A DNA stretch of 56,776 nt from Escherichia phage Seurat. Shown here piece after piece: positions 22,376 to 42,712 of this stretch. Position numbers and translations under genes: made by a program. The DNA lies in the sequence record NC_027378.1; one strand, 5' to 3'. The notes under the pieces are model-generated. The model worked only from the letters and a program-made list of their open reading frames with translations. It was not told the origin of the DNA and did not search any database. Position 1 is the first letter of the stretch; each line of letters starts with the position of its first letter.

Positions 22376-22659
22376 TATGCTTTCCCTTTACGACATAAGG
22401 CTTGAAGTTCAAGAAGCGCATCAATGTCTTCCTGTGGAGTTACACCAACGTGAATTGGATATTTAGCGCGACATTCGTAGCCAACTTCAACAGTGTGGTT
22501 AATGTAGCCGTAAACACATCCACCAATAACAGTGAAGATAAGCGCAACAATCATTGCAAGGTACTTACCTTGTTTGCGTTCTTCATTTTGTTTATTAAGC
22601 TGACGGTTAAGTTCCACCGCGTCGATTTTACCTTTATTGTAATCGTCTACTAAGCTCAT
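22375..22659 (-). CDS. single-pass membrane protein
   Basis: Reset to the ATG at 22659 (RBS GAGGAG); central TM helix YLAMIVALIFTVIGGCVYGYI. Confidence 0.45.
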   Translation of the reverse strand: MSLVDDYNKGKIDAVELNRQLNKQNEERKQGKYLAMIVALIFTVIGGCVYGYINHTVEVGYECRAKYPIHVGVTPQEDIDALLELQALCRKGKA

Positions 22660-22684
22660 TTTGTATCTCCTCTTGTTGTATGCA

Positions 22685-22713
22685 TATATTAAAACAGACC
22701 CGCGAAGGGTCTG
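22685..22713 (-). terminator. intrinsic terminator after the DNA polymerase gene
   Basis: CAGACCC-ttcgc-GGGTCTG followed by TTTTAATAT on the minus strand. Confidence 0.55.
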
Positions 22714-22723
22714 CAAGTAGAAT

Positions 22724-24709
22724 TTAGGCGTATCCCATGTCTTCGAGATACTTCTCTGCTTTAGCTATATAAGCATCATAATCTATGTCGTCCGGCACTT
22801 TATCCGGTAGCGTCATGATCGGAACACCTCCCGCGCTACCAGCTACACGGTTGCCCGTGTTAGCATAGATTATTTCAGGTGTTTCTTCATTAGTGCTTAA
22901 GTACCAGCGTACAACCTTACCCAAAAATTCGCCATTCCATACCGCGCCGCCTTTTACCGCACGTAGGATAATGAATTTTCTAATATCGTTGCAATTGCGT
23001 ATAGTACGAGAAACAGGCGTACCGTGGGCCAAACATTCACATACAGCTTCCATAATGATCTCACCAGTACAGTTCTTTTGAAGACCTGTCTTTGCGAACC
23101 ACCCTTTACGTTTAATTTCAACATTTCCTTCCTCGTCAGGTTCTTTTACTGCAACATAGTTATTGACGTTAGCGCTGTACAGCTTGTCATAGTAGTTGGA
23201 CTCCATTTCAAAGCCTGTCACGGATTCCCACCACTTGATCATATTATCAACGAAGTCCTGCATATGGTCCGGATACTTAACCACAATACCATCCGTGTTC
23301 GCTGAAATTACTTTAACACCATTTAACTCAAATGCTTCAATAAGCATCAACAGTGATAGCTGCCCTGTTAATGTAACTTGTATCAATAATTGCGGCGCGT
23401 AAAGGACAGACCACATAGACCCCAGCTTACCAAACGATCCGTTAATAACGATCTTCAGCGTGTTGGCTGTGTTCTTGTCTCCGCTGTGCTTAGCTGCAAT
23501 ACGGCGGTCTACAATACTTTTATAAACACGAAGGAACGCTGGTCCCAACTGTTCTGGATATAAGCCCTGATTAAGAATGATTGAAGGATAATAAGACGTT
23601 ACGTCAATGTCCCGCTTTTTGATACCAGGCTCTTTACCGTGGCCAGCACACTCTTCGGAGCTATGTAAACCACCAATACCCATACGGTAGACACCGTCTG
23701 CAATCTTGATCTCAAGACCTGTTAATGCTGGAGGTAAGCTGACACCACCGTTATCGCTAACAATAAAGCGACAGTCCCGAACAATATCAAGAACACTATT
23801 CATCAAAGGTGTTTGAAAACGAATAAAGTCCGGTATGTTGTATGCATACTTTGTTCCAGGATAAACTTGCGGACGCTGTGGGCGCACGCCCGTTAACGCT
23901 TGGATTTCGTGCTTAATTACGTCTTCTGCAATCTGTGCATCGGAGCGTGAACGTAGATCCACACCGTATTCTTGCGACATAATTTCACGCAAGTGAATAG
24001 GCTCTTGCAATGCAATAAAACATTCTTCTGTTTGTACAAGGTCGTTAATACAGTACCAGCGTACAATTAACATCTGGTCCTGCGTTAACATGGTATTGGG
24101 TTTGAACGGTAAATCCTGCATACGTCGAGTATGTACACGTCCGCCGTATTGTTTCAAACCGCCGGACCCAGGCAGCACTTCCATGATATCAATGTGGTTA
24201 ACGTTCTGCATACGCTTGAGACGGTAACTTTTCAATACATCCGAAGGACGCCAGTCTTCAACGATTATCTTATCGGTCGCGTCTTTAAGCTGCGCATTAG
24301 AACAGCCGTTAAGCGCAAGCGTAGCAATGGGCATATCGTACCCGTTACCGTTAAAGCTTACGATAAGGAAGTTTGTCATTACCCAGTTAAGTAATAAGCA
24401 ATTCAAACTACAACCGTGATACATCTCGAAGTAGACAACTTTCTTAGTTCGCACTCCGCGAAATGCAATTAAAAAATAATTTGGATAACATTCTATATCA
24501 TATACAAGCGGTTCGCGGTTAATCCATGCTTGAATAAGTTCGTCCTGTGTGTACAGGTTGTATTGGAAGTTCCGCGCTTCCTCAAGATTAGGCAAATAAT
24601 CCGGGCGCTCCCAAGTGCGCTCCGGCGGTAAACGTTTAACCTTTTCTTTTTTTGCTTTTGGCTCAGGCGGTAAGTCCTGCCAAAAGAAACCAATAGCATC
24701 TGTCCGCAT
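22724..24709 (-). CDS. family B DNA polymerase with 3'-5' exonuclease domain
   Basis: Exo motifs YDIECYPNYF, FNGNGYDMP, WYCINDL; polymerase motifs DVTSYYPSII, KIVINGSFGKLG, SANTDGIV; track start is TTG at 24763, reset to the ATG at 24709. Confidence 0.8.
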   Translation of the reverse strand: MRTDAIGFFWQDLPPEPKAKKEKVKRLPPERTWERPDYLPNLEEARNFQYNLYTQDELIQAWINREPLVYDIECYPNYFLIAFRGVRTKKVVYFEMYHGCSLNCLLLNWVMTNFLIVSFNGNGYDMPIATLALNGCSNAQLKDATDKIIVEDWRPSDVLKSYRLKRMQNVNHIDIMEVLPGSGGLKQYGGRVHTRRMQDLPFKPNTMLTQDQMLIVRWYCINDLVQTEECFIALQEPIHLREIMSQEYGVDLRSRSDAQIAEDVIKHEIQALTGVRPQRPQVYPGTKYAYNIPDFIRFQTPLMNSVLDIVRDCRFIVSDNGGVSLPPALTGLEIKIADGVYRMGIGGLHSSEECAGHGKEPGIKKRDIDVTSYYPSIILNQGLYPEQLGPAFLRVYKSIVDRRIAAKHSGDKNTANTLKIVINGSFGKLGSMWSVLYAPQLLIQVTLTGQLSLLMLIEAFELNGVKVISANTDGIVVKYPDHMQDFVDNMIKWWESVTGFEMESNYYDKLYSANVNNYVAVKEPDEEGNVEIKRKGWFAKTGLQKNCTGEIIMEAVCECLAHGTPVSRTIRNCNDIRKFIILRAVKGGAVWNGEFLGKVVRWYLSTNEETPEIIYANTGNRVAGSAGGVPIMTLPDKVPDDIDYDAYIAKAEKYLEDMGYA

Positions 24710-25449
24710 TAGACACGTTCTCCAATTAATACACCGCGAAGATTTTCCCCAAAGAATGCGCAAGGTTGCGGATATAAACTAAAGTCCGCAGTCTTAACCA
24801 CATTTTCGAGTAATAACAGGATGTCGATATTGTAAACTCCCGTTATTGATCTGTCCTGCAATACGAAGCTTGCACCTTCTGCATCATCATAATGAGTACG
24901 CGCTAGACCGTTTTCAATATATACGCGAGGACGATCTTCCGCAAAAGGTTTGATTTTATGCAAGCCCTCAAAAAGACCTGGATCAACAGGATGTGCATTG
25001 CATTGAACATTTAAAATACGACGTATATCAGGCCACTCCGCATCAATAAGCTGTGTTCGCAACCAGCGACCTTCCGGATAATGAAACGTCACATTGTTCT
25101 TGCTGACCTGAATATGTGTCGGGTTAGCTTTAATGCGCAGTATTTCTTTAATAGCAACAGACGGTATTATGCAGTCAATAGGGAATTGATTACCGAACCA
25201 ATATTCCGCAATGGTGACGTTATTTGTAGCAAACAGGCTACCGTTATTGATCAGAATACCGCAAGCCCACGGGCGGGATGCATCTGAGCCTACGAACGGA
25301 GCAACGGACTTCACACCGTGTACGAAGCGAGCACCGTCTATTTCGTATAAATTGCCTTCAGGGAATACGTGAGGTGTTTCCTTGTCAATACAGCGTATAG
25401 CAACACGAAACGGTCCGGACTTGATATTAAGTTTACCGTTAGCCATCAT
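24709..25449 (-). CDS. hypothetical protein between DpdA and the DNA polymerase
   Basis: About 247 aa; start set at ATGATG preceded by AAGGAAAA; stop overlaps the polymerase ATG (TAATG). Confidence 0.45.
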   Translation of the reverse strand: MMANGKLNIKSGPFRVAIRCIDKETPHVFPEGNLYEIDGARFVHGVKSVAPFVGSDASRPWACGILINNGSLFATNNVTIAEYWFGNQFPIDCIIPSVAIKEILRIKANPTHIQVSKNNVTFHYPEGRWLRTQLIDAEWPDIRRILNVQCNAHPVDPGLFEGLHKIKPFAEDRPRVYIENGLARTHYDDAEGASFVLQDRSITGVYNIDILLLLENVVKTADFSLYPQPCAFFGENLRGVLIGERV

Positions 25450-25609
25450 TGTTTTGTTTTCCTTGTGCATTAAACCATGTACCTGACGGATCCTGCCATT
25501 GCTTAGGTGTCTTGTGGAGAAATACTACTCTGTTTTCACCGTAATAATTAATTCTTACGCCTGTGTGAGTATATTTACGTTTACCTTTTGGTCTTCTTAA
25601 GTTAGCCAT
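25439..25609 (-). CDS. small basic protein (56 aa), not in the ORF track
   Basis: ATG overlaps the DpdA stop (TGATG); MANLRRPKGKRKYTHTG...; no internal stops. Confidence 0.3.
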   Translation of the reverse strand: MANLRRPKGKRKYTHTGVRINYYGENRVVFLHKTPKQWQDPSGTWFNAQGKQNNDG

Positions 25610-26529
25610 CAGAACAACTCCATTACACGATCACGGAATGTGCCGTCATGGGTGGCGTTAATGTTTGCAGCAATTACACCATACGCCCATAAGTTGAAGG
25701 CAGCACGTGATTCATAGATTGTTGATAAACGTTCGTAAGTGAAACCGTTTTGCTCAAGGTATTTAAGGACAGCGTCTTGTTCAATTTCAGTTAATGTTGA
25801 AACATGCTTACCAAAATGATGGCGGTCCGGTGACTTATCTGAAACGCGCATTGGTCCCCACGGAGGGGTAACCACACTTCCAAACGCTGCCGCTTGTATC
25901 CAGGAGGATGAGTCGCAGCTATACCACGGGTAACGTTCCATAATGGTTGTGGACGTAATACCAAACGCATGAAGTTTAATCTTAGCACGTCCGCTACCGT
26001 CGCAAATGTATTTGTCCCACATGCGGTCAAGCCAAGTCTTAAGCGTGTCCGTGGAACGCCCTACCATGCCCCCGATGGTGATATATTCGTAGTTCTTCAT
26101 GTAGTATTCAAGATAGCGGAAGTCCTCCCCAAAGTGAAAGCAAGGTAACGGTTTAGCACCGCGTGCTTCCATTTCAAGCTGGTTACGGTAGGTTTGTAGC
26201 GGATCACCGATACCATCGAGCACCGATGCCATCACCGCACCATCTTCTACGCGAAGGATGTCTTTGTTACGCTTAATGTATTCGCAGTATTCAACAATAT
26301 CAATGTGAGCACCCAAAGAGTGCGCGGAGAATGCACCGGAGTCGAGAAACACTTTAGCCCCGTCCGCACGCATCTGATCAACATACTTTTGACGTCCAAC
26401 GTAGTGGTATGATTCCAAAATATGGGGCAGATTGCGCGTGATATTTTTCTCATGCTCCGACAGCTTTTCATAACGCTGCTGCCCGGGCATATATCCGTTT
26501 GTGTAAACTGCTGCCATAAAAACGTTCAT
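25609..26529 (-). CDS. dpdA: DpdA-like DNA-guanine transglycosylase (TGT family)
   Basis: FLDSGAFS motif matching the catalytic DSGGFQ region of tRNA-guanine transglycosylases; sits in the preQ0 gene cluster. Confidence 0.7.
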   Translation of the reverse strand: MNVFMAAVYTNGYMPGQQRYEKLSEHEKNITRNLPHILESYHYVGRQKYVDQMRADGAKVFLDSGAFSAHSLGAHIDIVEYCEYIKRNKDILRVEDGAVMASVLDGIGDPLQTYRNQLEMEARGAKPLPCFHFGEDFRYLEYYMKNYEYITIGGMVGRSTDTLKTWLDRMWDKYICDGSGRAKIKLHAFGITSTTIMERYPWYSCDSSSWIQAAAFGSVVTPPWGPMRVSDKSPDRHHFGKHVSTLTEIEQDAVLKYLEQNGFTYERLSTIYESRAAFNLWAYGVIAANINATHDGTFRDRVMELF

Positions 26530-26732
26530 TTTTGGAATGGTCCTCCAAACTGATCAATTAGTTCTAAGGTACGCCATGCATTATTAAATGCTTCGTCCGC
26601 TTGATGTTTAGCGTCAATAAGCTGCTGCTTTAAGACATTTGTAGGAGCATCATTCTGTATTGCAGAGCAAGCATCCGCAGTACCTGCTTTAAGCTTGTAG
26701 AATGCAGCTTCTAAAATTAATTGTCTTGACAT
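26526..26732 (-). CDS. hypothetical protein
   Basis: Start reset to MSRQLILEAAF... with RBS GGGGGA. Confidence 0.35.
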   Translation of the reverse strand: MSRQLILEAAFYKLKAGTADACSAIQNDAPTNVLKQQLIDAKHQADEAFNNAWRTLELIDQFGGPFQK

Positions 26733-26803
26733 ATTTCCCCCAATGACTAAAAAGCCCATACCAGTATTATGACCGATATGGGCTTGATCTGTAAAGCTAT
26801 CTA

Positions 26804-27412
26804 TTATTTACAAGCTTCAAGGAACTCCCGGCGCCATTCTTTACCAATATCGCTACCATGCTCCAGTTCTGTAGCGCCCCGGAACGCTTTGGTAATAGTA
26901 GAGCTTCCGCATACCTGCTTGACGCCACGACTTTCCATGCACATATGCTTGGCGTCAATATAAACACATACCGCTTTCGGATTCAGGTGTTCCTGGATAG
27001 CGTCAGCAATCTGGTTAGTTAGTCTTTCCTGAACTTGTAAGCGGCGTGCAAAAGCGTCAACCACACGAGACAGTTTGCTAAGCCCCACAATGCGACCGTT
27101 CGGGACATACCCCACAACAGCACGACCAATAATGGGAGCCATATGGTGCTCGCAATGACTGTAAACAGGAATATCCCGTACAATAACCATTTCATTAGTA
27201 TTTTCCGCCCCATCCTCAAAGGTCTTAAACAGCCCAGCAATATCTACATCGTAACCGCTAAACCATGTAGCATAGGCTTTAGCGACACGATCTGGAGTCT
27301 CTGCTAATCCTGGACGTAACTTAATGCAATCTTCAATCTGAGTTAGTAAAGTATGCACCGCGCGAGCAATACGGAATTGAGTACCTTCGTTATCAATAGT
27401 AAATTTTGGCAT
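26804..27412 (-). CDS. folE: GTP cyclohydrolase I
   Basis: 202 aa with the FolE signature YSHCEHHMAPIIG. Confidence 0.9.
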   Translation of the reverse strand: MPKFTIDNEGTQFRIARAVHTLLTQIEDCIKLRPGLAETPDRVAKAYATWFSGYDVDIAGLFKTFEDGAENTNEMVIVRDIPVYSHCEHHMAPIIGRAVVGYVPNGRIVGLSKLSRVVDAFARRLQVQERLTNQIADAIQEHLNPKAVCVYIDAKHMCMESRGVKQVCGSSTITKAFRGATELEHGSDIGKEWRREFLEACK

Positions 27413-27448: not shown

Positions 27449-27982
27449 TTACAGACTATAGTTTACGTGACATTTCGAAGTTTCTTCGATGGTGCATTCT
27501 ACAAGTTGAACACCATGTTCGTCAAGCAGTTGCGACCCAATTACTTCAACCATGTACGCAGCCAGGTTTTCTGCGGTCGGGTTGAAAGGCAGCGCTACCA
27601 GCGAGTCAAAGAAATGGTATCCGTCCTCTTGCTCTACCACGTCATACCCTATAGCAGCGTCGTGACGTAAAAGAGCATCGAGCCCTTTAATGAGAGGATC
27701 ATTTTCCCAATGCAGGAATTTATGATCCCAGTTATCTTCCAGCCATTGGCAGAGCGTAGTTTTGACCACACTAAAATCAATAACGCGCCCAACATCGTCC
27801 AGTTTACCTTCAACGGAGAAACCTTTCGCACCCGGGATGTAGTTTTCGCTTTCTACGCGCTTCGGCGCAACCTTAAAATGAAACTTATAGTTATGACCGT
27901 GAAGGTGGCGACACTTGCTTTCATGTCCTACAACACGATGTCCAGCACAAATTTCATGTGAACGAATTACTGTATAGCTCAT
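27449..27982 (-). CDS. queD: 6-carboxy-5,6,7,8-tetrahydropterin synthase
   Basis: CAGHRVVGHESKCRHLHGHNYKF zinc/catalytic motif. Confidence 0.85.
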   Translation of the reverse strand: MSYTVIRSHEICAGHRVVGHESKCRHLHGHNYKFHFKVAPKRVESENYIPGAKGFSVEGKLDDVGRVIDFSVVKTTLCQWLEDNWDHKFLHWENDPLIKGLDALLRHDAAIGYDVVEQEDGYHFFDSLVALPFNPTAENLAAYMVEVIGSQLLDEHGVQLVECTIEETSKCHVNYSL

Positions 27983-28524
27983 TTTAATACCTCTTTAGAT
28001 TGTTCGATTTCTAACGCACGCTGTGCAGACGCAATAATGTCTTTCAAATCTTCTACCAGACCTTTATGACCGCGTTCGCCCGGCTGTAATGCCTTTTTAA
28101 TTAAATGCTGTAAAGCTGGGTTAGTTGTTTTCCAAGCTTCCAAGACATCATACACGTCCACGATGCATTTTACAACATTGCCGTTTTGATCTTTACCATA
28201 AATAACTTTCTGATATTTATTCATGGGAATTTTAGACGGTTCGTATTTCGTAAAAATTGCGGTTTTATCAGTTCTCCAATAGGGTAGATTTGCTTCAATA
28301 GATTGTTTGACGTAATCCTCCGCAACGATATACCGCCAGGCTACTACATCCGACATCTTGAGTGGTAATGGTTTGGGATTGTCTGTATACCAATCCCAAC
28401 CAGTTCTATAATTCTTAACAATATTACCGCTAGCTAATTGAACTTCAAACTGCTCGTTTTGTAGAAAGATAGGCATCCCTTTGCCATCATGCTTGTGCCA
28501 AATTTTATTCAAATTATCTTTCAT
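27979..28524 (-). CDS. hypothetical protein embedded in the 7-deazaguanine cluster
   Basis: About 181 aa from MKDNLNKIWHKH...; no recognisable motif. Confidence 0.45.
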   Translation of the reverse strand: MKDNLNKIWHKHDGKGMPIFLQNEQFEVQLASGNIVKNYRTGWDWYTDNPKPLPLKMSDVVAWRYIVAEDYVKQSIEANLPYWRTDKTAIFTKYEPSKIPMNKYQKVIYGKDQNGNVVKCIVDVYDVLEAWKTTNPALQHLIKKALQPGERGHKGLVEDLKDIIASAQRALEIEQSKEVLK

Positions 28525-29835: not shown

Positions 29836-30024
29836 TTAGAACCCTTTAAGGCTAATATTAAGATTAACGACCACTTGTTCAACTACATCATCAGATGTCA
29901 TCTGACGCTTATGAATTTCAAGCTCCGAATGTATGTTCTTGGATGCAGCACGACAGATAGCGTCATTCAGCTCGTCTTGTAAACGTTGCATCTTCTGCAT
30001 AAGAATCACAGTCTCTTCATTCAT
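29836..30024 (-). CDS. hypothetical small protein
   Basis: 62 aa, helical, charged. Confidence 0.4.
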   Translation of the reverse strand: MNEETVILMQKMQRLQDELNDAICRAASKNIHSELEIHKRQMTSDDVVEQVVVNLNISLKGF

Positions 30025-30229
30025 CTTCTACACCTTTAATATCACAAGGATTGATTGTTACATTTGACATCACAATTGGATGATTGCGTGCTCCGATTGT
30101 ACTAACGTGATTAATATCTAATTCTACATGCACGCCCTGCATAGTAGCGTGAGCAATTGAAGAATTAAGTTTTTCTACCAGCTCAGTGATCATTTCCTGA
30201 TGCTGTTTCGCTTCTTCCAAAGTGATCAT
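30017..30229 (-). CDS. hypothetical small protein
   Basis: 70 aa. Confidence 0.4.
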   Translation of the reverse strand: MITLEEAKQHQEMITELVEKLNSSIAHATMQGVHVELDINHVSTIGARNHPIVMSNVTINPCDIKGVEDE

Positions 30230-30484
30230 TTAAACCTCCGTTAATGTTTGAGTCCAGTCTAAGCCTTCAAGGTCTACATCAGCTATTTCATCGTACTCGT
30301 AAGCTCCCGGATCTGCTGGCAGCCATCTATCAAATCGATGGCTGAGTTCTGGAGGAATTGCTTCATACCCCCAAACCTTCCCATCCTTGTCGGCTGCCAG
30401 ATAATCAACTCGACTTGGAACGGTTAAAGCGACACCACAAAAATTAACATCTTTAGTATGCACAACCTGACTTAATACACGCAT
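30230..30484 (-). CDS. small acidic protein, member of a three-copy paralogous family
   Basis: VPSRVDYLAADKDGKVWGYEAIPP...GLDWTQTLTEV shares motifs with the 51099 and 51682 proteins. Confidence 0.5.
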   Translation of the reverse strand: MRVLSQVVHTKDVNFCGVALTVPSRVDYLAADKDGKVWGYEAIPPELSHRFDRWLPADPGAYEYDEIADVDLEGLDWTQTLTEV

Positions 30485-31191
30485 TATTCCACCCCGATAT
30501 ATTTGTGGACCTGAAGCTGCAACGTGTACCCGTGTTTCATACAGCTTTGGACAACCGCTTGGATATTACTGTGGTTAAGGTCTTCATCCTGCTCGTCCAT
30601 TGGCTGTAAATATATCTTACCCTTGAAACCCTTCGGAGGTCTAGCGATAAATGGCGTAGCTTGATGATCTAATGCCTGAAGCGGCAAACCATCTTCCACG
30701 TTTACACAGCACGCTTTAAGTACATATTTAAATGCATTAGCGCGGCGCAGCACAGAAGGATGAATCTTTGAGGTCTTGGGACTACATACAATTACAGGTA
30801 ACTGGGAAAAGTTCTTAGGTAAAGGCATAGACCCATTAGTTTCAATTTGCACCAAATAGCCGCGCGATAACAGTTGTTCAATAAACGGGTTAATTTGCTG
30901 ACGGAACGGTTCACCCCCAGTGATAACCACAAGTGAGGTGCTATTACCTGATTCCAGCTTACGGCTTTCGATTAAACGCATAATATCAACAATATGATAA
31001 AGACTACGACCAACAGTATAATCGGTATCACAGCCAGGGCATTGCAGATTACACCCAGCAAGACGCACAAATACAGCAGGTTGGCCGCAGAATGGACCTT
31101 CACCCTGAATGGTAGAGAATACCGAATGCACGTCTAAATACATATCGTTTTCTTTAGAACGGGACTCGGGAGCTTGTTGATTAATATTCAT
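30484..31191 (-). CDS. queE: 7-carboxy-7-deazaguanine synthase (radical SAM)
   Basis: CNLQCPGCDTDY cluster-binding motif near the N-terminus; 235 aa. Confidence 0.85.
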   Translation of the reverse strand: MNINQQAPESRSKENDMYLDVHSVFSTIQGEGPFCGQPAVFVRLAGCNLQCPGCDTDYTVGRSLYHIVDIMRLIESRKLESGNSTSLVVITGGEPFRQQINPFIEQLLSRGYLVQIETNGSMPLPKNFSQLPVIVCSPKTSKIHPSVLRRANAFKYVLKACCVNVEDGLPLQALDHQATPFIARPPKGFKGKIYLQPMDEQDEDLNHSNIQAVVQSCMKHGYTLQLQVHKYIGVE

Positions 31192-31202
31192 CTTAAATCC
31201 TC

Positions 31203-31235
31203 TAGTGAAAAAGAAAGCGCCTCATTGGGCGCTTT
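31203..31235 (-). terminator. intrinsic terminator
   Basis: AAAGCGCC-caatga-GGCGCTTT followed by CTTTTTC on the minus strand. Confidence 0.55.
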
Positions 31236-31260
31236 CATTATAACGTGATATGTTTTGATA

Positions 31261-32073
31261 TTACAAGCCGTTCAGGGCTTCCGGTACTGGCATAGGTACG
31301 CGACCAGTTACACCATTAAACTTCTTCCAACGTGCATACTGAGTTTTAACGGTATCTTCGTTCAGACCGTGGCGACCTGCCAGATTCAGAACATAAGAGA
31401 TCGGAGCAGGCTGACCCAGCGTAGCGCTAATCTGATCCATCAGAGCCCAGGCACGACCGCAGGAAGTTTCAGGTTGCGGACGACGAACACCATTCTGTTC
31501 GGGCATACGGTTCGCTTCTTTCGCTTTTTCACGTTCAGCTTTTTCGCGGGCTTTTTCAGCAGCCTTTTCAGCCTGTTTAGCAGCGCGGATCTTGTCTTTG
31601 AAGCCTTTGATAGACGAATCCAGTTCGTCAACCATGCTCTGAGCAGCAGTTACTGCACCGGACAGATCTTCACCTTTGGATTTTTTAACAACTGCTTTCA
31701 GATCTTTCAGAGCATTCTTTAAATGCTTCAGCTGTTCGGAACCCTTAGATTCTGCTTCCGTAATCTGTTCAACAGTGCTTTCATCGGTAATACCGGATAA
31801 AGCAAGCTTCACGGTTTCAACTGCCTGGGAAAGAGTGGTAAATTTATTTTCCGCTTCAGTACGAATTTCAGCTTGTTTCTTTTCAGCGGCAGCTTTTTTC
31901 TCTGCTTCTTTTTTCTCTTTTGCTACGCGTGCAGCTTCAGCAGCAGCGGCTTTTTTAGCTTCTGCGTCGTTAGCAGTAGCTTCTTTCTTTGCAGGCTTAG
32001 CAGATTTTGCAGCGGCAGCAGCGGCTGCGGCAGCAGCGGCTTTCTTATCTTCAATATTACTCATTTTCTTCAC
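31261..32073 (-). CDS. Lys/Ala-rich histone H1-like protein with a C-terminal globular, possibly DNA-binding, domain
   Basis: N-terminal KKAAAAAAAAAAAKSAKPAKKE... low-complexity tract; C-terminal WALMDQISATLGQPAPISYVLNLAGRHGL. Confidence 0.5.
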   Translation of the reverse strand: MKKMSNIEDKKAAAAAAAAAAAKSAKPAKKEATANDAEAKKAAAAEAARVAKEKKEAEKKAAAEKKQAEIRTEAENKFTTLSQAVETVKLALSGITDESTVEQITEAESKGSEQLKHLKNALKDLKAVVKKSKGEDLSGAVTAAQSMVDELDSSIKGFKDKIRAAKQAEKAAEKAREKAEREKAKEANRMPEQNGVRRPQPETSCGRAWALMDQISATLGQPAPISYVLNLAGRHGLNEDTVKTQYARWKKFNGVTGRVPMPVPEALNGL

Positions 32074-32192
32074 TCCGAATTATTATGGGTTCGTTTGTTA
32101 CCAACGGGGTTAAATGTACCAAAGGATTTTGTGACACGCAACCCCTTACATAAACATTTTTTAAAAATATTTTTGATCAGGGTTAGAACTTA

Positions 32193-32687
32193 TTAGCTCT
32201 TCGCACCTCTGCCCGGTGTCCATGCGGCTTGCAATGCGGGTCGCTCACAAATGACCCTGGCACCGGAAATAATACCACCCTCCCGTTCAGCATCGTATTT
32301 GACACGGGCAGGTTTCCAAAGTCCTTCATCCATTGACGGTACGTATTGTCCAAGTTGAGGCGAGCAAAAGCCCTGGATATCATATTCCACACAGAATTCG
32401 GCTTGTGCGCTAATTTGGGCGTGATCCAGGATTGTTTCTGGAAGTTGCGTAAAGTAATCAGACAAAATGCGCTCAACGATTTCCCGTTCATATGGTGCAG
32501 CTCCTAAGTTTTCTGTCAGGTTAATATAAAGCATTTGAAGATCAACATCTTCAAGATCTTTTAAATCGTTTACCGGTGTTACCAGTGTTGACTCTGGACA
32601 ACAGATAATTCCAAGTTGGTGTAGTGTCAACCAATTGGGATGTTTTGCCAAGAGTTCAAATTTATCTGTATCAATTAGGACGTACAT
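32193..32687 (-). CDS. hypothetical protein
   Basis: 164 aa. Confidence 0.4.
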   Translation of the reverse strand: MYVLIDTDKFELLAKHPNWLTLHQLGIICCPESTLVTPVNDLKDLEDVDLQMLYINLTENLGAAPYEREIVERILSDYFTQLPETILDHAQISAQAEFCVEYDIQGFCSPQLGQYVPSMDEGLWKPARVKYDAEREGGIISGARVICERPALQAAWTPGRGAKS

Positions 32688-32696
32688 TGCAATCCC

Positions 32697-32731
32697 CTAT
32701 AAATAAGTAATGCCCCAATAGTAGGGGCATT
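32697..32731 (-). terminator. hairpin, terminator-like, after the helicase gene
   Basis: AATGCCCC-tactatt-GGGGCATT followed by ACTTATTTATA on the minus strand. Confidence 0.4.
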
Positions 32732-32746
32732 AGATGTTGAAGTCAA

Positions 32747-34723
32747 TTAGAACGGAACGTAATCCGGATCATCTGCTTGCACAGGATTAACCACATTGTT
32801 CACTGTTATACCTTGCGTATTCTGCGAAACAATATCGTCCCAGCTTACATCATCGTTATAGCTCGGACCTTCGGTTGTTCCATCCTGCCCGTATACTTTA
32901 ACCTGAATAGCTTGGTCGTCCTGCGGAGCTTCAAACTTACCGAAACACGTACCATCATAATCATAGTTCAATATCTCAGGCCATTTCTTATTGGTATGAA
33001 CTTTGATGTATTTTGGTGTTTTAAGCATTGCAGCAACATCAAGAGCTTCTTCAATAGTTTGTGGTAAAGGTAAATGTGTCCTTTTCTTCCACCATGCGAC
33101 AGCTTTACGACCTGCCCAGTCCCCATGAAGCAGAGCTACCCATTCACTGAATATTTTACTACCGCAATAATAAGTCACCTTCATTGTTGGAGGTTTAGAG
33201 CTGTCATTGCGTTTAGTATGCTTTGCATAAGTAACATGCGTAACTTTGAAGTCTTCAACTACTGGAATATCCTGCTTGATCAGGGCTTCCGTACTTGCAG
33301 CTTTCTTGAGTTTGGTCTGGAACTTAAACTCATGACCGCAAAAGCCTTCTTTAACGTAATCCGTCCCGCGTAGCCTAAATCCTTTCAGATATAATTGTTG
33401 AACTTGTTCCTGTGTGACGCTGTCCATTGGGATTGGTGCGAAGCCACCGCAATAGCGAGCAGATGCATGATTATACGACCCACATACATCGCATTCTTTA
33501 ACCGGAGCAGTACCAGCACCTTTTTCGCCAGGTCGCTTGGGTTTAACAGGGTCGTTAATAGGGCCCAAACGGCGCGTATTACCGCTGAAATCCAGTACAA
33601 GGCAGTTCTGCTTGGGGCTTGCTGCAATAGCTTGTAAGCGCCCCTCCTGCGTGGAAAGATCAAACCCCTCCGCGTACACCGGACGCGTACCGCGACCCAG
33701 CATCTGGACCCATAGCACCGCCGATGCAGTGGGGCGGAGCATGATAATTAAGTCCAGCATTGGATGATCAAAACCTGTGGTTAAGACGTTATTGTTAGTT
33801 AATGCTCGAAATTCACCGCGCTTAAACTTCTCAATAATCTCGTCACGTTCTTTTGCATCAAGCTTAGAGTGAATACATCCACAGCTAATACCCATATCGT
33901 TCAGCATATCACACGCGTCTTTAGCGTGTTCAATACCAGAACAAAATATAAGCCAGCTTTGACGGTCTTCACCACATTCAATCGCTTCCTCAAGTGCGCG
34001 GAGTGTTGCGTCATCGCGGTTTACCGCACTTTGCAGCTCACTCTGGATAAACTCACCGCCGCGTTTACCTACCCCGTTGAGGTCCAGCTCCATCTTAGTA
34101 CGCTTTGGCACAACCGGAAGAAGATAACCTTGCTCCAGGAACCAGTTGAAGGCTTCCGGAGTAGTTGCATCAAACGTCACCTTATCAAATAACGCATCAT
34201 CGTCTTCGTTTTCCTTAACAATTGAACCATACCCCAGTCGATAAGGTGTAGCAGTAAGGCCGATGATTTTTAAGTAAGGGTTAACTTCACGCAAAGCTGC
34301 AAAGAACTTCTTATACATTGTTGCATCACGTGGACTAATAAGATGCGCTTCGTCCACAAAAATAAGATCAACTTTGCCGAACTTTTTCGGATGCTTAGCA
34401 ACGGACGCAACTCCTGCAAAGGTAATAAGATTGTAGACTTCTTTACGCTTCAAACCCGCGCTGTAAATACCTGCTGGCGCTTCGGGCCAGACTTTCATTA
34501 ATTTATCATAGTTTTGTGCAATTAACTCTTTGACGTGAGTTAACATCATTACGCGCTGGTTTGGATACCATTTGTAAAGCAGATCGAGGAACCCCGCGAT
34601 AACGAGCGATTTTCCTGTCCCTGTTGGTAACAGGATCAAAGGGTTCCCCGCGTTACCCTTTTCAGCATCAAAATAGCGGAATACGCTATAAACTGCTTCC
34701 TGTTGATAATCGCGGAGTTGCAT
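32747..34723 (-). CDS. SF2 DEAD/DEAH-box DNA helicase with C-terminal zinc-ribbon region
   Basis: LRDYQ; Walker A LLPTGTGKSLV; DEAH box IFVDEAHLIS; motif VI GRGTRP; CDVCGSYNHASARYCGG. Confidence 0.8.
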   Translation of the reverse strand: MQLRDYQQEAVYSVFRYFDAEKGNAGNPLILLPTGTGKSLVIAGFLDLLYKWYPNQRVMMLTHVKELIAQNYDKLMKVWPEAPAGIYSAGLKRKEVYNLITFAGVASVAKHPKKFGKVDLIFVDEAHLISPRDATMYKKFFAALREVNPYLKIIGLTATPYRLGYGSIVKENEDDDALFDKVTFDATTPEAFNWFLEQGYLLPVVPKRTKMELDLNGVGKRGGEFIQSELQSAVNRDDATLRALEEAIECGEDRQSWLIFCSGIEHAKDACDMLNDMGISCGCIHSKLDAKERDEIIEKFKRGEFRALTNNNVLTTGFDHPMLDLIIMLRPTASAVLWVQMLGRGTRPVYAEGFDLSTQEGRLQAIAASPKQNCLVLDFSGNTRRLGPINDPVKPKRPGEKGAGTAPVKECDVCGSYNHASARYCGGFAPIPMDSVTQEQVQQLYLKGFRLRGTDYVKEGFCGHEFKFQTKLKKAASTEALIKQDIPVVEDFKVTHVTYAKHTKRNDSSKPPTMKVTYYCGSKIFSEWVALLHGDWAGRKAVAWWKKRTHLPLPQTIEEALDVAAMLKTPKYIKVHTNKKWPEILNYDYDGTCFGKFEAPQDDQAIQVKVYGQDGTTEGPSYNDDVSWDDIVSQNTQGITVNNVVNPVQADDPDYVPF

Positions 34724-34724
34724 A

Positions 34725-35633
34725 TCAATCTTTCCCGTAATAATTAGCTACTTGATAGTTTTGACAACCAACTTTCTGTCCTTGCGTATCCACTGAGGCG
34801 GAATGGAAATTGCAATACCATGTTCCATCTTCTTTTGGCTCAAGGAATTGACATGTGCGGCAGTTTACTTCCGGCATAGTTTTACGCCAGCATAGTGAGG
34901 AGTGATCGCACCATTTACATTCGAAGAAAGTGGAATCTTTAAATGCGCGGTCCGGAATATCTGTAGCAATAGCAATCTGCACACCACGATCAATATACAT
35001 GTCCGCGGTAACAGGATCAAACGGAATAATTTCTGCGTAAACTTCATCGTCATTCTTGTTTACTGCAAGATATAACGCTGCGCCAAGACCTAGTTTTCGC
35101 ATGTACACGTTCATCTGTACATAGTGCTCAGGTTTAGCTTCTTTGACACCTTTAGCTTTCAGCTTTTTAAAAGACTTATCGTTATGCGTCTTCATTTCGG
35201 TAAGCACAGGCATCCCAGGCTGCACGTCCGGACAACCTATAACCACACCATCACAGGAACCGCCAAAGTGTCCGCCAGCTTCGCTGATACGGAACTGGTG
35301 TCCATTTTCGTCCTGCTGATAGACCTGCATACCTGCCGCAAGAAGCATAGCAATGAAACGCGCTTCTTCCAGATGTCCACGGTTAAACAGTCGAAGCTGG
35401 CGTCCGTCAAACTCTTTGCGTGTAGCCCAGCGATATCCATAGAAAAGCTTGCGTGCGCACTGTTGCCCAATAAGGGAAGCGCCTAAGTGACTGCGGTTAC
35501 CGCTTTCAGGGCGATAAGCGTCTTCAATTGTGGGAATGACTACGCCAAGATACTTACGGTAAGTCCCACCCTGATCTTTTTGCACACCGTCATTGATCGC
35601 TTGAAGTGTTTTTTCTGCAATATAAATAGCCAT
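34725..35633 (-). CDS. PD-(D/E)xK nuclease (Cas4/RecB-like exonuclease) with C-terminal Cys cluster
   Basis: D...EMK signature (SCDGVVIG...LTEMKTH); C-terminal CKWCDHSSLCW...CRTC...C. Confidence 0.55.
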   Translation of the reverse strand: MAIYIAEKTLQAINDGVQKDQGGTYRKYLGVVIPTIEDAYRPESGNRSHLGASLIGQQCARKLFYGYRWATRKEFDGRQLRLFNRGHLEEARFIAMLLAAGMQVYQQDENGHQFRISEAGGHFGGSCDGVVIGCPDVQPGMPVLTEMKTHNDKSFKKLKAKGVKEAKPEHYVQMNVYMRKLGLGAALYLAVNKNDDEVYAEIIPFDPVTADMYIDRGVQIAIATDIPDRAFKDSTFFECKWCDHSSLCWRKTMPEVNCRTCQFLEPKEDGTWYCNFHSASVDTQGQKVGCQNYQVANYYGKD

Positions 35634-35641
35634 TGGAATAC

Positions 35642-35672
35642 CTTAGAAAAATAAGCCGTCTTTCGACGGCTT
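35642..35672 (-). terminator. intrinsic terminator
   Basis: AAGCCGTC-gaaa-GACGGCTT followed by ATTTTTCT on the minus strand. Confidence 0.55.
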
Positions 35673-35698
35673 ATGGACACTACAGAGGGAGGGTTATC

Positions 35699-36580
35699 TT
35701 ACTGCTGCCACGGCGGGACTGCTGCTTGTGCTGGATGCGGTTCAGCTTGCTGCTGCGGCTGAGCTTGCTGCTGAGGCGCTGCTGCCTGACCCGGCTGTGC
35801 TACCTGCTGCGCCCACGGCTGCTGAGCTGCTTCCGGTGCTACTGGCTGTTGTACCGGAGCTTGCTGCACTGGCTGCTGTGGTGCTGCGTTTTGAGCAGGA
35901 TTATCCCACGGCTGCGGTGCTGCGTTCTGCCACGGTTGAGCTGCTGCGCCCTGCTGCGGTGCTGGTTGCTGCACAGGTTGCTGAACAGGCTGCTGTTGCT
36001 GTACCGGAGCTTGCTGCTGTACAGGTGCTTGCTGTTGCTGAGCAAACGGGTTAGCTGCTGGCTGCTGTGGCGCTGCGCCCGGGAAAGTTGGCTGCTGTGC
36101 TGGCGCACCTGCACCAAACGGGTTAGCTACTGCTGGAGCACCCATTGATGGAGCCTCTGCTGCTTTTTCTGCATATTTAACCGGATCGTTGATGTTAGCG
36201 TAACCGTTAGGCTCGTTGCTGTCTTCATAACCTTCCTGAGAACGAACTTTCAGACGCAGGTTCAGCGGAATGTTATGCAGCTGAGCAGGGGTATCCCAGC
36301 GAATTACACCAACCGCATGGGACAGAGCACCCAGTTGCTCGTAAGCGATGCGTACAGTATCTTCGTTGTCGTTAATGACGTTATAACGAGCAAAGATTTT
36401 ACGCCCTTTAGCAAAACCGTCAATGATGCTAAACGTTACCTGGATCGCCATACCGCCATTTTTGGTCGGTTTAAATTCAGATGCTTCAATTACTGCTTTA
36501 TACCAACCTTTCGGCAATGCGCCGTAAGAAGGTGCTTGATAGCTGCTCGCGTCAAAGTGGAAATTAGTTGGCATAGTCAT
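35699..36580 (-). CDS. putative ssDNA-binding protein with a Gln/Pro/Ala-rich disordered C-terminal tail
   Basis: Globular N-terminal about 150 aa, then about 140 aa of QQPVQQ/APQQ repeats; adjacent to the Sak4-like ATPase. Confidence 0.45.
   Translation of the reverse strand: MTMPTNFHFDASSYQAPSYGALPKGWYKAVIEASEFKPTKNGGMAIQVTFSIIDGFAKGRKIFARYNVINDNEDTVRIAYEQLGALSHAVGVIRWDTPAQLHNIPLNLRLKVRSQEGYEDSNEPNGYANINDPVKYAEKAAEAPSMGAPAVANPFGAGAPAQQPTFPGAAPQQPAANPFAQQQQAPVQQQAPVQQQQPVQQPVQQPAPQQGAAAQPWQNAAPQPWDNPAQNAAPQQPVQQAPVQQPVAPEAAQQPWAQQVAQPGQAAAPQQQAQPQQQAEPHPAQAAVPPWQQ
35700..36130. repeat. CAG/CTG-rich low-complexity coding repeat tract
   Basis: Repeated GCTGCTG/CTGCTGC units encoding the Q/P/A-rich tail; generates spurious ORFs in several frames. 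Confidence 0.7.
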
Positions 36581-37308
36581 TAGTTGATACCTTTCATTTT
36601 GTTGATAACAGAACCTAAGTGTGGGACTTCAACCGCATCTAAACGTCCCGAACGATCCTTAGCGATTGTATTAAAGTCCGGTTGAGTTTGCAAGTAACGA
36701 TATGAGTTACCTTGCTGATCTTTATTTACATTCAGACGAAATACCTCGTCGAAGAAATAAGGGAGCATTTGTCCCAATTTGGACCCAGGCATAGATGGAG
36801 CATACGCGGTAACACCGGAGACTTCATCTTTGTCTTTGCCCATTTTAGCAGACATATAAACATGTTTGCCAGGAATATCGCGAAATTTACGGATCAGATC
36901 TTGCATCTTTTCAAGCAAAGTACCATAAGCTTGACGAGGATCTTTTGTTCCTTTTTTCGCATTGTTTAAACATTGTTCAGCAATTTCGCTCAAGCTGTCA
37001 AGCGCAATAGAATCGAAATACTGCTGGTTAGCTGGAGTTACACACCACTGATAAGCAGCTTCAACGTCCTCCAGACATTTAACTTCGATAACAGGAATGT
37101 CATAAACGATCGGCAATCCCATGTTACCATAAACACGATTAAGGTTTTCCGCTGCAATAGATAACAGACCGGACTCTGCGCTGATCAAAATTGGTTTAGG
37201 TAGTGTGGCTACAAGGCTGGTTTTACCCATACCCGCTTCACCGTAAACCAGAATTTTAACGCCTGTGTCTTGCACTACTTGTGAAGACATTTTAATTTCA
37301 ATGGCCAT
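36580..37308 (-). CDS. RecA-like core ATPase (Sak4-like recombination protein)
   Basis: Walker A VYGEAGMGKTSL; about 240 aa; adjacent to SSB-like and nuclease genes. Confidence 0.6.
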   Translation of the reverse strand: MAIEIKMSSQVVQDTGVKILVYGEAGMGKTSLVATLPKPILISAESGLLSIAAENLNRVYGNMGLPIVYDIPVIEVKCLEDVEAAYQWCVTPANQQYFDSIALDSLSEIAEQCLNNAKKGTKDPRQAYGTLLEKMQDLIRKFRDIPGKHVYMSAKMGKDKDEVSGVTAYAPSMPGSKLGQMLPYFFDEVFRLNVNKDQQGNSYRYLQTQPDFNTIAKDRSGRLDAVEVPHLGSVINKMKGIN

Positions 37309-37373
37309 TTAACGCCTCTCTTTTAAGTTCGTGCTCATTGTAACGTAATATACTTTGAACCCTCAATTACTTT

Positions 37374-38294
37374 TTAATCTAAAGCCTGATCAGTTTCATC
37401 GCGGAAATGCATAAAGTTAGCAAAACGCGGTTTATCTTTAACGCCATGAGGAAAGTGTTTATATGAAATAGTCCGACCTTTAATCTTGTCAGGGTTATTC
37501 CAATAATAAATCTTATCCTCTTGCGTTAATTTACCAGGACTAACGTTGATTGTATTGCCCGTCTTAACGTCTTTACAAACAAGCGTCCCGATCATACCGT
37601 TAGGAACTTTATTTTCCTGATGTGAAGATCGTGTAGTCCTTCCCAGCTCGTTAACAGTAGCTTCATTAAGATTAGTTTCACCCTCAATAATATCGAGGAC
37701 AATAGCGTCTTCCTGAATAAAGCGTTTAATACGAAGATATCCACCTTCTCGAACTGTACCGCGCCCATGCTTGTAAGGCTTGTTTGGATCACGGATAATA
37801 ATACCTTCATAACCCATATCAAGCCAGATGTTTTCCCAGTAGAGCAACTCTTCTAAAGACTTAACCACATACATCGGCACAACTTGCAGGTCGAGCAGTT
37901 CGCCTTTCGCGTGCTGTGTGGTTATAAAATCTTTCATCATGTTGTAGCGTGCTTCATAGCCCAGCTCTGCAACACTTTCCGCGCACAGATCAAAGATGTG
38001 CCATTTCAGGAACGGTTCGCCTTCAATTGTGTTTACCGCACTGGTTGTTTTACGGCACAGATCCGGGTCCGTTTCAACTCCTGCCGCAAGCTCACCATCA
38101 TAGCCCATGTACTGGGGACCGCTGAAAATTGCGCTTGTATGGCGGTTTTTAAACAGCTTTAAGCTGCGCCCTACTATTTGCCCATCCGGATTTAAACCGC
38201 GTACACCGTCGATTTTAGGCAGTATGCAGCACGGAAACTTAATCTTTTCTTCAACCGCGTCAGTTGCTAAATGTGGTTTAAATGCCATTTGCAC
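37374..38294 (-). CDS. ATP-dependent DNA ligase (minimal type)
   Basis: Nucleotidyltransferase motif I LPKIDGVRG, motif IV EGIIIR; 306 aa. Confidence 0.75.
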   Translation of the reverse strand: MQMAFKPHLATDAVEEKIKFPCCILPKIDGVRGLNPDGQIVGRSLKLFKNRHTSAIFSGPQYMGYDGELAAGVETDPDLCRKTTSAVNTIEGEPFLKWHIFDLCAESVAELGYEARYNMMKDFITTQHAKGELLDLQVVPMYVVKSLEELLYWENIWLDMGYEGIIIRDPNKPYKHGRGTVREGGYLRIKRFIQEDAIVLDIIEGETNLNEATVNELGRTTRSSHQENKVPNGMIGTLVCKDVKTGNTINVSPGKLTQEDKIYYWNNPDKIKGRTISYKHFPHGVKDKPRFANFMHFRDETDQALD

Positions 38295-38940
38295 CTCTAT
38301 TCATAAAAGAATGTACGAATTTTAATTTACGAATACGCTCATCGCGTTCTGCAACAGCTTTATCGTCTTCTGAACGAGCAGCCGAACAAACTTTCTCTTT
38401 CATACGAATATTACGACGTAAATGTCCGCTACCCTTTTTAGGTCTGTTTTCCTTTTTCTTTGCTTCGGAAATAAGCTCTTTGCATTCCTGCAAACGGATC
38501 TTGCTTCTTTCCAATCGCATAGCAGAACGCGCACGTTCATCACAAAATCTTTGAGCTTTGCTACGCTGGTCCTGATTACTTGTATGACCTTTAACGTGGC
38601 GAAACTCAATAGTAAGGTTATATTTACGAAGTTGATCGTTCAACCATTTGAAAGCTGTACCTTCCTGTTCGCTTTTCCAGCTTGCCTCTTTATAAACTTT
38701 AATAGCAGTTGAACAATCTGTTTGGACGATTAGATGATCACCCGATTGAATTAAATTAGCTTTTAACCCTTCCCAAATAACATTACAAATCGCCATTGTT
38801 TCGGCGGCATTGTTATCCGGAGCACCGCGTAATGGACCACCGTTAGCATTATTTCCACGGTTACAAACTACCCATCCGCCATAGCCTGCGGCTTTTGTAT
38901 TTGGGCAAAAACTTGCATCAGAAATAATTGTTACTCTCAT
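38278..38940 (-). CDS. rnhA: ribonuclease H (RNase HI-like) with a basic C-terminal extension
   Basis: VTIISDASF...GYGGWVV; NNAAETMAI; LIVQTDCS; RHVKGHTSNQDQRSKAQRFCDERARSA; colinear with E. coli RNase HI motifs. Confidence 0.8.
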   Translation of the reverse strand: MRVTIISDASFCPNTKAAGYGGWVVCNRGNNANGGPLRGAPDNNAAETMAICNVIWEGLKANLIQSGDHLIVQTDCSTAIKVYKEASWKSEQEGTAFKWLNDQLRKYNLTIEFRHVKGHTSNQDQRSKAQRFCDERARSAMRLERSKIRLQECKELISEAKKKENRPKKGSGHLRRNIRMKEKVCSAARSEDDKAVAERDERIRKLKFVHSFMNRGANGI

Positions 38941-38945
38941 TGTTT

Positions 38946-38978
38946 TTCCTTAATAAAAAGGGGTCGAAAGACCCCCTT
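38946..38978 (-). terminator. intrinsic terminator
   Basis: GGGGGTC-tttc-GACCCC followed by TTTTTATTAAGG on the minus strand. Confidence 0.5.
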
Positions 38979-38983
38979 GTAAG

Positions 38984-39214
38984 TTATGCAGGAATAGATT
39001 CTTCCGGTTCTTCAGGGATCACGATTTCAATCTCTTCTTCATTTTGGAAGGTTAGACGGAAACCATCTCCCGGGCGCCCAAAAGCAAAGGTAAGGGCTAT
39101 CGTATTATCCTGCTCGTAATGACAGATACTTTCTACTTTCATTTCGTTACCGTAAAAGTCACGGTAAATCATTCCAGGAAGCGCATCGGTCGCTTTGATC
39201 TTTCTTACAGCCAT
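38984..39214 (-). CDS. hypothetical small acidic protein
   Basis: 76 aa. Confidence 0.4.
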   Translation of the reverse strand: MAVRKIKATDALPGMIYRDFYGNEMKVESICHYEQDNTIALTFAFGRPGDGFRLTFQNEEEIEIVIPEEPEESIPA

Positions 39215-39225
39215 TATTCCCCCGT

Positions 39226-40017
39226 TTACAGTTTGTCTTTGAACTCTTCGATATATTGCTCGATCGGATACTGCTTACGCTTGAAACGATCAAACAAGAT
39301 TTTAGCAGATTCTACGTCTTCGTCGCTCTCTTTACTTGCGCCCGGTGCCATAAAATCACGCCATGTAAAACCGTTCAGATTATGCATCTTAGCGATGTGC
39401 TTGTTGTAACGGCTTTCCCAGTCCACACGCGGACCTTCCATCGTGCGTAAACCGCGCCCAAGCACCTGTACATATAGATCTTTCTGACGTTGTACAGCTT
39501 CACCATTATAAGGTCCGGTTTTAAACTCAACAACACTACCGTTAAGATCTGCACCATCCGCAAAGTTGTGTAGCATAGTTTCAATAACGTCATTCAATGT
39601 TGGAACCGTCACTTTTCCCTGGGCAATACCTGCCAAATAACCGACGTTTTCTTCACCGTACAACTCGATCAGTTCTTTCTTGGTCGCTTCTGCTTCTTTG
39701 TTTGCGGACAAAGCCAACATCTGTTGTTCGAACATGTGTTCCTGTTCCAGGAAGTGAGCATAGCGCTCTTCGTCTACTTTGCACACAATCCATTTATATT
39801 CAACATCCTTGCTGAAGTCCGGATACTGATCTACTTCTACTACTTCCGTAGTAAAGAACTTGCCGTTATATTGAATAACAACTGTATCGCCCGGCTGCAA
39901 TTCGTCACTTTCCAGAGCACGGTATGTATAAAGACGACCACCCGCTTCAAACTTAACTTTGACAGTTACAACGCCTTTTAACAGAGCATGATAAGCTTTC
40001 TGAAATTCTTTACGCAT
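39226..40017 (-). CDS. hypothetical protein
   Basis: 263 aa. Confidence 0.45.
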   Translation of the reverse strand: MRKEFQKAYHALLKGVVTVKVKFEAGGRLYTYRALESDELQPGDTVVIQYNGKFFTTEVVEVDQYPDFSKDVEYKWIVCKVDEERYAHFLEQEHMFEQQMLALSANKEAEATKKELIELYGEENVGYLAGIAQGKVTVPTLNDVIETMLHNFADGADLNGSVVEFKTGPYNGEAVQRQKDLYVQVLGRGLRTMEGPRVDWESRYNKHIAKMHNLNGFTWRDFMAPGASKESDEDVESAKILFDRFKRKQYPIEQYIEEFKDKL

Positions 40018-40058
40018 TTTAGTTTCCTCTTGGGCGGATTGACCGCCCGTTAATGTGG

Positions 40059-40469: not shown

Positions 40470-40493
40470 TTTTCTATCCTCTGTTGTGTTTCG

Positions 40494-40530
40494 ATGTATG
40501 TATAATAGCACATCCATGTGACAGGGCAAG
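40494..40530 (-). promoter_or_regulatory. sigma70-like promoter
   Basis: TTGCCC-N16-TATTAT on the minus strand about 30 nt upstream of the 40469 start. Confidence 0.35.
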
Positions 40531-40710
40531 ACTCAATCTGTATCAATTAATCTTTTTAAACGGATTAGTAATCTAGCAACCTTCCTCCATTCAGCATCCT
40601 CCATTAATGGTGAAGGCTTATATGCTTCAGGTATCGGACAAGGTATATATGGCTCCATGTCAGATATTACTTGCTTTGATAACTTTTTCTTCCGTTTACC
40701 CATAAATAGC

Positions 40711-41298: not shown

Positions 41299-41307
41299 AA
41301 TTTCACC

Positions 41308-41805: not shown

Positions 41806-41847
41806 TTCATAAAGAATTTTATATTGAAGTTATGTTGATCGCAAGGA

Positions 41848-42704: not shown

Positions 42705-42712
42705 TTTACACC

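Follow-up and report, generated by a model that had tools for sequence, protein, structure and literature searches.

Between the gene for the 7-deazaguanine DNA transglycosylase DpdA and that for a family-B DNA polymerase (PolB), the genome of Escherichia phage Seurat (NC_027378.1) holds two open reading frames (ORFs), a small basic one and a longer one, and the question raised by this locus is what these two ORFs are. The window analyzed, to which all coordinates refer, is the complete genome of 56,776 nt. All four genes lie on the minus strand: dpdA (25609–26529; 306 aa, intact; PHROG 887, E-value 8e-96), the 56-aa basic ORF CPT_Seurat32 (25439–25609), the long ORF (24709–25449), annotated in Seurat as a DNA polymerase processivity factor, and polB, a divergent family-B polymerase gene (22724–24709; 661 aa, intact; PHROG 1252, E-value 2.5e-228). 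The original prediction, made without database searches, regarded the two ORFs as intact new factors and missed a genome-specific deletion of 280 bp which shortened both. Judging from sequence comparison, both ORFs are very probably remnants of known genes, left after this Seurat-specific deletion.

The overlaps predicted at the two outer ends were found exactly as described. The dpdA stop codon TGA (25611–25609) overlaps the ATG of the small ORF (25609–25607) to form TGATG, and the TAA of the long ORF (24711–24709) overlaps the polB ATG (24709–24707) to form TAATG. The long ORF, said to encode approx. 247 aa, exists as well, but its length is 246 aa from the GenBank start (MMANGK; 25449) or 253 aa from the first in-frame ATG (25470). 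Tight coupling of dpdA, the two ORFs and polB thus holds for the outer overlaps only, whereas the inner ORFs overlap by 11 nt (GenBank start) or 32 nt (upstream ATG), a junction which exists in Seurat because of the deletion. Where the locus is intact, as in the relatives, TAATG joins the small gene to the next one, and Seurat lacks any stop/start junction of 4–5 nt at this site.

The closest relatives of the region by megablast are the phages Skure (99.5% identity) and CAjan (97.4%) of the genus Seuratvirus. Pairwise alignment of Seurat with either phage yielded a single clean gap of 280 bp in Seurat at position 25453. The junction (25452–25454) reads GGAAAACAA followed directly by AACAATGATGG on the sense strand, joined at base 25453, and this one base (A) is the only microhomology. 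In Skure and CAjan, the interval between dpdA and polB consists of a 75-aa gene and a 317-aa gene, the latter encoding a sliding clamp; missing from Seurat are codons 53–75 of the former (its last 23) and codons 1–71 of the latter. The small ORF, assigned by its phrog_38388 match and by alignment with its 75-aa orthologs, is composed of codons 1–52 of the 75-aa gene, four out-of-frame codons (NNDG) and a stop codon; as 280 is not a multiple of three, it runs on through these four foreign codons. The 246-aa ORF corresponds to residues 72–317 of the 317-aa clamp, and in Seurat the clamp frame is open upstream as far as the chance ATG at 25470. Profile matches are cut at the same place: the small ORF covers only positions 1–52 of 75 in phrog_38388, and the long ORF covers positions 91–365 of 368 in PHROG 947.

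A Skure probe spanning the missing segment was fully covered in 33 phage records, contiguously in 30 of them and interrupted only by an inserted ORF in the other three. All related loci covering the site contain the 280-bp segment (Skure, CAjan, GottfriedDienst, yong3 and two IMG/VR contigs). At the protein level, the clamp belongs to a 90% identity cluster of 124 members, and the 15 listed all have 317 aa except the protein of Seurat. Among the best 120 of 459 clamp homologs, lengths are 315–332 aa at a coverage of at least 99%. The products of both ORFs match Seurat records exactly, and the sequence of the 56-aa product has no exact match in any other record. Three other origins of the gap were rejected: a mobile insertion of 280 bp in the relatives, as the segment encodes the most conserved part of the clamp family; relocation, as a check of the whole Seurat genome found the segment nowhere; and repeat-mediated deletion or assembly collapse, as no repeats were found at the deletion end points of the intact sequence. 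A repeat does exist elsewhere in the locus. The 11-mer TGATGGCTAAC is present at 25601–25611 (3382–3392 of locus L001; start of the small gene, M-A-N) and at 25439–25449 (2939–2949 of L001; clamp codons 72–75, M-M-A-N), but it does not lie at the deletion end points. Its recurrence at both starts is the reason why both remnant ORFs begin alike.

For the long ORF, the fold had not been recognized in the original prediction, but its guess of a clamp-like processivity factor was correct: the ORF matches PHROG 947 (“DNA polymerase processivity factor”) with an E-value of 2e-60. This identity is already known from annotation, since the 246-aa ORF is labeled “DNA polymerase processivity factor/beta subunit” in GenBank/RefSeq and the 2015 genome announcement of Seurat names a sliding clamp subunit. 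The structure prediction and fold search proposed at the time were performed with the intact 317-aa ortholog. Based on a family alignment of 56 sequences, AlphaFold2 returned a model with a mean predicted local distance difference test score (pLDDT) of 93.7 and a predicted template modeling score of 0.87. Foldseek against PDB retrieved only bacterial DnaN beta clamps, over the full length (E-value approx. 5e-20, query template modeling (TM) score 0.80–0.84), and the intact ortholog shares the three-domain fold of these clamps (e.g., E. coli beta, PDB 6fvm and 3q4j). Profile comparisons also matched beta clamps (PDB, E-value 6e-5; TIGR00663, 2e-8; E. coli DnaN by hhalign, 9.6e-6), with scores under the family cut-offs for Pfam PF02767 (18.3 bits, cut-off 27) and for TIGR00663 with the intact protein (33.6, cut-off 137.65). 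From model and profiles, the intact protein is a divergent, slightly shortened three-domain beta clamp. It differs from bacterial DnaN in having only approx. 15% sequence identity, in being approx. 50 residues shorter and in its partner, which is a family-B polymerase instead of Pol III. The family is acidic (median isoelectric point (pI) 5.56), and an acidic pI is typical of ring-forming clamps (PMC3201878). Its invariant motifs D127–G135 and S142–N148 align with R152–L159 and T172–L177 of E. coli beta, in which R152, G174 and H175 are in contact with bound peptides (PMC3716654).

CAjan gp33 (YP_009196827) and Skure QBZ71663 (Seuratvirus, Queuovirinae; PHROG 947) represent the same gene at the same position as in Seurat, with 99% identity over residues 72–317 and membership in one 90% cluster, but they have 317 aa instead of 246 aa owing to the deletion. 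The lost residues 1–71 are the most conserved part of the clamp, with a mean top-residue frequency of 0.74 versus 0.64 elsewhere in the protein; conservation reaches at least 90% in 23 of the 71 columns. In the model, the loss removes a helix (2–11), three strands, a second helix (54–62) and a strand (69–72). Since residue 74 lies opposite E93 of E. coli beta (hhalign), the Seurat copy lacks the equivalent of residues 1–92 of the bacterial protein. The fragment retains domains II and III but, of domain I, only the last hairpin; the region aligned with the peptide-binding pocket of E. coli beta is also kept. Thus, the intact ortholog carries three tandem clamp domains in one chain, whereas the 246-aa ORF does not.

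By homology, the intact 317-aa clamp would form a head-to-tail dimer ring tethering the family-B polymerase to DNA. With one hairpin plus domains II and III, a six-domain head-to-tail dimer ring cannot be built; according to the model, a closed ring is therefore unlikely for the fragment, and we infer that it is most likely not functional as a processivity clamp. Its translation is nevertheless possible, since the internal ATG-ATG is now preceded by an AAGGA, which the deletion brought to a distance of 10 nt. The Seurat region is best explained as a damaged copy of a conserved operon for phage replication and DNA modification. In intact relatives, FolE, DpdA, the 75-aa protein, the beta-type sliding clamp and PolB are encoded in this order by genes joined by overlapping stop/start codons. 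The loss of 280 bp across the junction of small gene and clamp gene has left two remnants, namely a 56-aa product without the invariant C-terminal beta-strand of the small protein and, if translated from the internal ATG-ATG, a 246-aa clamp fragment. Unless the record is wrong, Seurat would then have to replicate its DNA by PolB unaided or with the help of the host clamp. A clamp loader was not recognizable in the phage genome. A candidate in the replication module (30000–46000), a gene called “ATPase” in relatives (36580–37308, minus strand), was rejected as a loader, as its product matches a Sak4-like single-stranded DNA annealing protein (PHROG 124). The 293-aa protein encoded next to it matches a single-stranded DNA-binding protein (SSB) family.

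The small protein is affected as well. CAjan gp34 and Skure QBZ71664, both 75-aa hypothetical proteins, are products of the same gene and identical or nearly so in residues 1–52, but the Seurat copy lacks residues 53–75. The full-length protein was modeled with a pLDDT of 85.4 as an all-beta fold, in which residues 62–71 form a long core strand carrying the invariant LDLTTI motif. The 56-aa version lacks this strand (invariant LDLTTI..ED), does not reach a full-length phrog_38388 match, and its BFVD model fails to superpose on that of the 75-aa protein (TM-score 0.30). Reading the C-terminus (ELDLTTI) as a linear clamp-binding motif was rejected, both because it is a confident core beta-strand in the model and because distant relatives conserve it as a portion of the domain.

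The deletion is present in the sequence record, and it is probably real in the phage as well. Some observations weigh against the view of two genuine remnants in a living phage. Seurat was isolated as a plaque-forming phage, so it is unexpected that a replication protein conserved this strongly should be lost, which favors either dispensability or a record error; the junction is known from the assembled record alone; and the fragment keeps domains II and III with the pocket-equivalent region, so a residual function without a ring is possible. We consider it rather unlikely that the deletion arose as an artifact during the 2015 assembly or in the DNA used for sequencing and that the living phage carries intact 75-aa and 317-aa genes. 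Such an error would fit a deletion which is unique compared with 33 related genomes and with the protein clusters, and which strikes the best-conserved portion of a gene under strong constraint, in a phage that is viable. Further, the junction 24-mer was not found in IMG/VR or JGI metagenome contigs, a weak point as IMG/VR holds only two contigs of the lineage. On the other hand, no repeats which could collapse an assembly exist at the end points, where microhomology is limited to 1 nt, and comparison with Skure revealed no further broken genes in the region. A clean loss of 280 bp is also unlike typical 454 errors, which are homopolymer indels. According to the 2015 announcement, 454 reads were assembled with Newbler at 107-fold coverage, and only the contig ends were checked by polymerase chain reaction; the coverage speaks against an artifact, the restricted check for it.

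If the deletion is real, it could have been selected, in that losing the small protein, the clamp N-terminus or both allows escape from a host defense, with the clamp being dispensable in E. coli. A precedent is known from another coliphage, in which a deletion that took part of a small gene and part of the adjacent one led to escape from Avs2 (PMC11564622). Independently shortened small ORFs of 51 and 63 aa occur in other public assemblies, and Seurat was isolated on an enterotoxigenic E. coli strain rather than K-12. However, no defense system is known to sense the small protein or the clamp, and our literature search found no link between either of them and such a system; moreover, Seurat is a single case, and the shortened ORFs elsewhere are possibly assembly errors. 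Overall, selection by host defense appears improbable. Even less probable is that the 246-aa fragment works without a ring, either as an adaptor for PolB, DpdA or both via its domain II/III pocket, or as a two-domain protomer which assembles differently. In its favor, the fragment retains its C-terminal tail along with domains II and III, including the invariant D127–G135 and S142–N148, which align with the pocket region of E. coli beta, the new start is preceded by the AAGGA, and viral clamp homologs which do not form rings exist, e.g., in herpesviruses (PMC3201878). However, known non-ring clamps are basic and not acidic as the present family, none of the best 120 of 459 homologs is shortened in this way, and the orphan hairpin of domain I is unlikely to fold correctly. 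Finally, the initial view of two intact, natively coupled genes, one encoding a new accessory factor of DpdA and the other a protein with an unrecognized fold, retains hardly any credibility. The stop/start overlaps at both outer ends on which it was built are real, but both ORFs are shortened relative to every relative, which refutes it by alignment, the fold is that of a known beta clamp, and the small ORF is absent from Nonagvirus, which bears DpdA.

The family of the small protein (phrog_38388) is itself small and basic (median pI 10.1). An exhaustive profile search retrieved few weak relatives (E-values from 6e-5 to 8e-4), one of them a tandem duplication, which share the motifs YTHTG, LRETK..W, G..[FY]RK..G and LDLxTI with it. 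One relative overlaps the end of an N6/N4 DNA methyltransferase gene (L008, 4034–5237), the tandem duplication lies beside a RecD-like helicase gene (L011, 5001–5405), and another relative follows just after the replication gene P of a lambda-like phage (L014, 3501–3701), where it is partly annotated, as an ORF of 40 aa. Distant relatives also occur without DpdA. Conversely, the small ORF is absent where dpdA abuts the clamp gene, namely in Nonagvirus BRET, a Stenotrophomonas phage, Vibrio phage 1.207.B and a Synechococcus phage, and also in PBPA162, in which the clamp gene follows 75 nt after dpdA. The proposed role as a DpdA accessory factor was not supported by these findings: as Nonagvirus has DpdA without the small protein, and as relatives are found beside methyltransferases, gene P and helicases, it is not a general partner of DpdA. 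Three candidates were discarded: Ksap1 (74 aa, beside a methyltransferase in Dhillonvirus), which is described as response-regulator-like and limited to Dhillonvirus; P0162, a 658-aa repeat protein from the profile search, likely a chance match to a QWxDPS repeat; and P0002 (425 aa), which had clustered with the 56-aa ORF and is unrelated.

Three further versions of the small gene are shortened by a stop codon or frameshift (P0155, 51 aa; P0157, 63 aa; P0021, 63 aa), all from public-assembly contigs of about 58–60 kb; either assembly errors or dispensability of the small gene would explain them. In GottfriedDienst (L005, 1538–1774), an extra 78-aa ORF is inserted precisely at the border of the 75-aa gene with the clamp gene and is joined by overlapping stop/start codons, likewise in WildeMaa and phiG7. 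Other phages carry unrelated small ORFs at this junction (L006, 2920–3117; L019, 18692–19077; L020, 6918–7684). The junction before the clamp gene looks like an insertion hot spot. Our best guess for the small protein, held with low confidence, would be a dispensable, small nucleic-acid-binding accessory protein residing in such a hot spot.

The proposal that the two ORFs act with DpdA or the replisome fails for the small ORF, but finds some support for the clamp in gene order and in terminal motifs. The order FolE, DpdA, zero to two small ORFs, clamp and PolB is kept in nine diverse phages (two lineages of Seuratvirus, Nonagvirus, Iggyvirus, a Stenotrophomonas phage, a Rhizobium myovirus, BcepGomr, a Vibrio phage and a Synechococcus phage). 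Pseudomonas phage PIP (OR687155, L023) was unusable for this comparison owing to the fragmentation of its record, in which dpdA, the clamp gene and polB are annotated as many short pieces and which looks frameshift-rich. DpdA, annotated in relatives as DpdA or queuine tRNA-ribosyltransferase, has the same length in Seurat, Skure and CAjan. In all nine phages, it ends in Leu-Phe plus zero to two residues (VMELF, LQDLFDE, IQELF, QMELF, EQRLF, QQGLFV, QPGLF and DPVLF). Likewise, 120 of 120 close DpdA homologs end in LF plus zero to three residues. In the 115 ending exactly in LF, the last four residues are conserved after a variable linker (Q in 109, E in 114, L and F in 115 each). A shorter DpdA subfamily (240–277 aa; L024, L025, L026) from actinobacterial and Cellulophaga phages, which is always encoded beside a ParB-like nuclease-domain gene and not beside a clamp gene, lacks the Leu-Phe tail. 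PolB, whose PDB and NCBIfam matches are archaeal PolB and E. coli Pol II, starts with M-R-x-D-x-x-G-[LMF]-F-W in nine of nine phages.

Beta-clamp-binding peptides follow the consensus QL[S/D]LF, e.g., QLGLF at the C-terminus of E. coli Pol II; they are usually located at a protein terminus, and their Leu-Phe pair inserts into the clamp pocket (PMC3716654). The DpdA tails and the PolB G-[LMF]-F-W motif resemble these motifs of E. coli polymerases in being terminal and in having a Leu/Phe-Phe anchor, and the DpdA tails often have Gln three to four residues before the anchor. However, the position of this Gln is not fixed as in QL[S/D]LF, and Seurat has Met there. In Seurat, the candidate clamp-binding peptides would be the final five codons of dpdA (V-M-E-L-F; 25612–25626, minus strand) and, in the conserved N-terminal motif, codons 4–10 of polB (D-A-I-G-F-F-W; 24680–24700, minus strand). 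A tentative and new hypothesis derived from these motifs is that the clamp acts as a tool-belt tethering both enzymes: PolB might dock by its N-terminal G-[LMF]-F-W and DpdA by its Q-E-L-F-type tail, which would physically couple 7-deazaguanine insertion to the replication fork. Alternatively, the DpdA tail might be needed for the folding of DpdA or for contact with a different partner, and the pattern of motifs and gene order is confounded with the shared ancestry of the whole module. No paper linking DpdA to a clamp was found in the literature.

Directly 3′ of the polB stop codon, a consensus scan detected a terminator-like GC-rich hairpin with a T-rich tail (22694–22714, minus strand); by this pattern match, it likely marks the end of the operon. 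No structured RNA with an Rfam match was found in 22500–27000, and the number of promoter-like sites did not exceed chance expectation. Seurat differs from Skure at other sites, too. At approx. 27979–27986, a 107-aa hypothetical gene located between queD and the next gene in Skure (30375–30698) is absent, a clean whole-gene difference; at approx. 41341, approx. 540 bp of Skure (43921–44464) with an HNH homing endonuclease gene are missing. Seurat is also circularly permuted by 71 bases relative to Skure, in that its first 71 bases (1–71) match Skure’s last 71.

As first described, the finding is ordinary, as the long ORF is the already annotated clamp of a well-sequenced genus. Its interest comes from a possible natural clamp-null phage, or else an error in an exemplar record, and from the lead toward a tether between DpdA and the clamp. 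Seurat is the exemplar genome of the genus Seuratvirus, with broken copies of two conserved genes, and the truncation is mentioned neither in the 2015 genome announcement nor in the genus comparison paper. Either the record contains an error in need of correction, or the truncation is a sign that the phage can do without its clamp. Should the deletion be real, Seurat would be a natural clamp-truncation mutant in which coupling of DpdA to the clamp could be tested via modification level and motif pattern. If true, a clamp-coupled DpdA could explain how phage DpdA gains access to newly made DNA.

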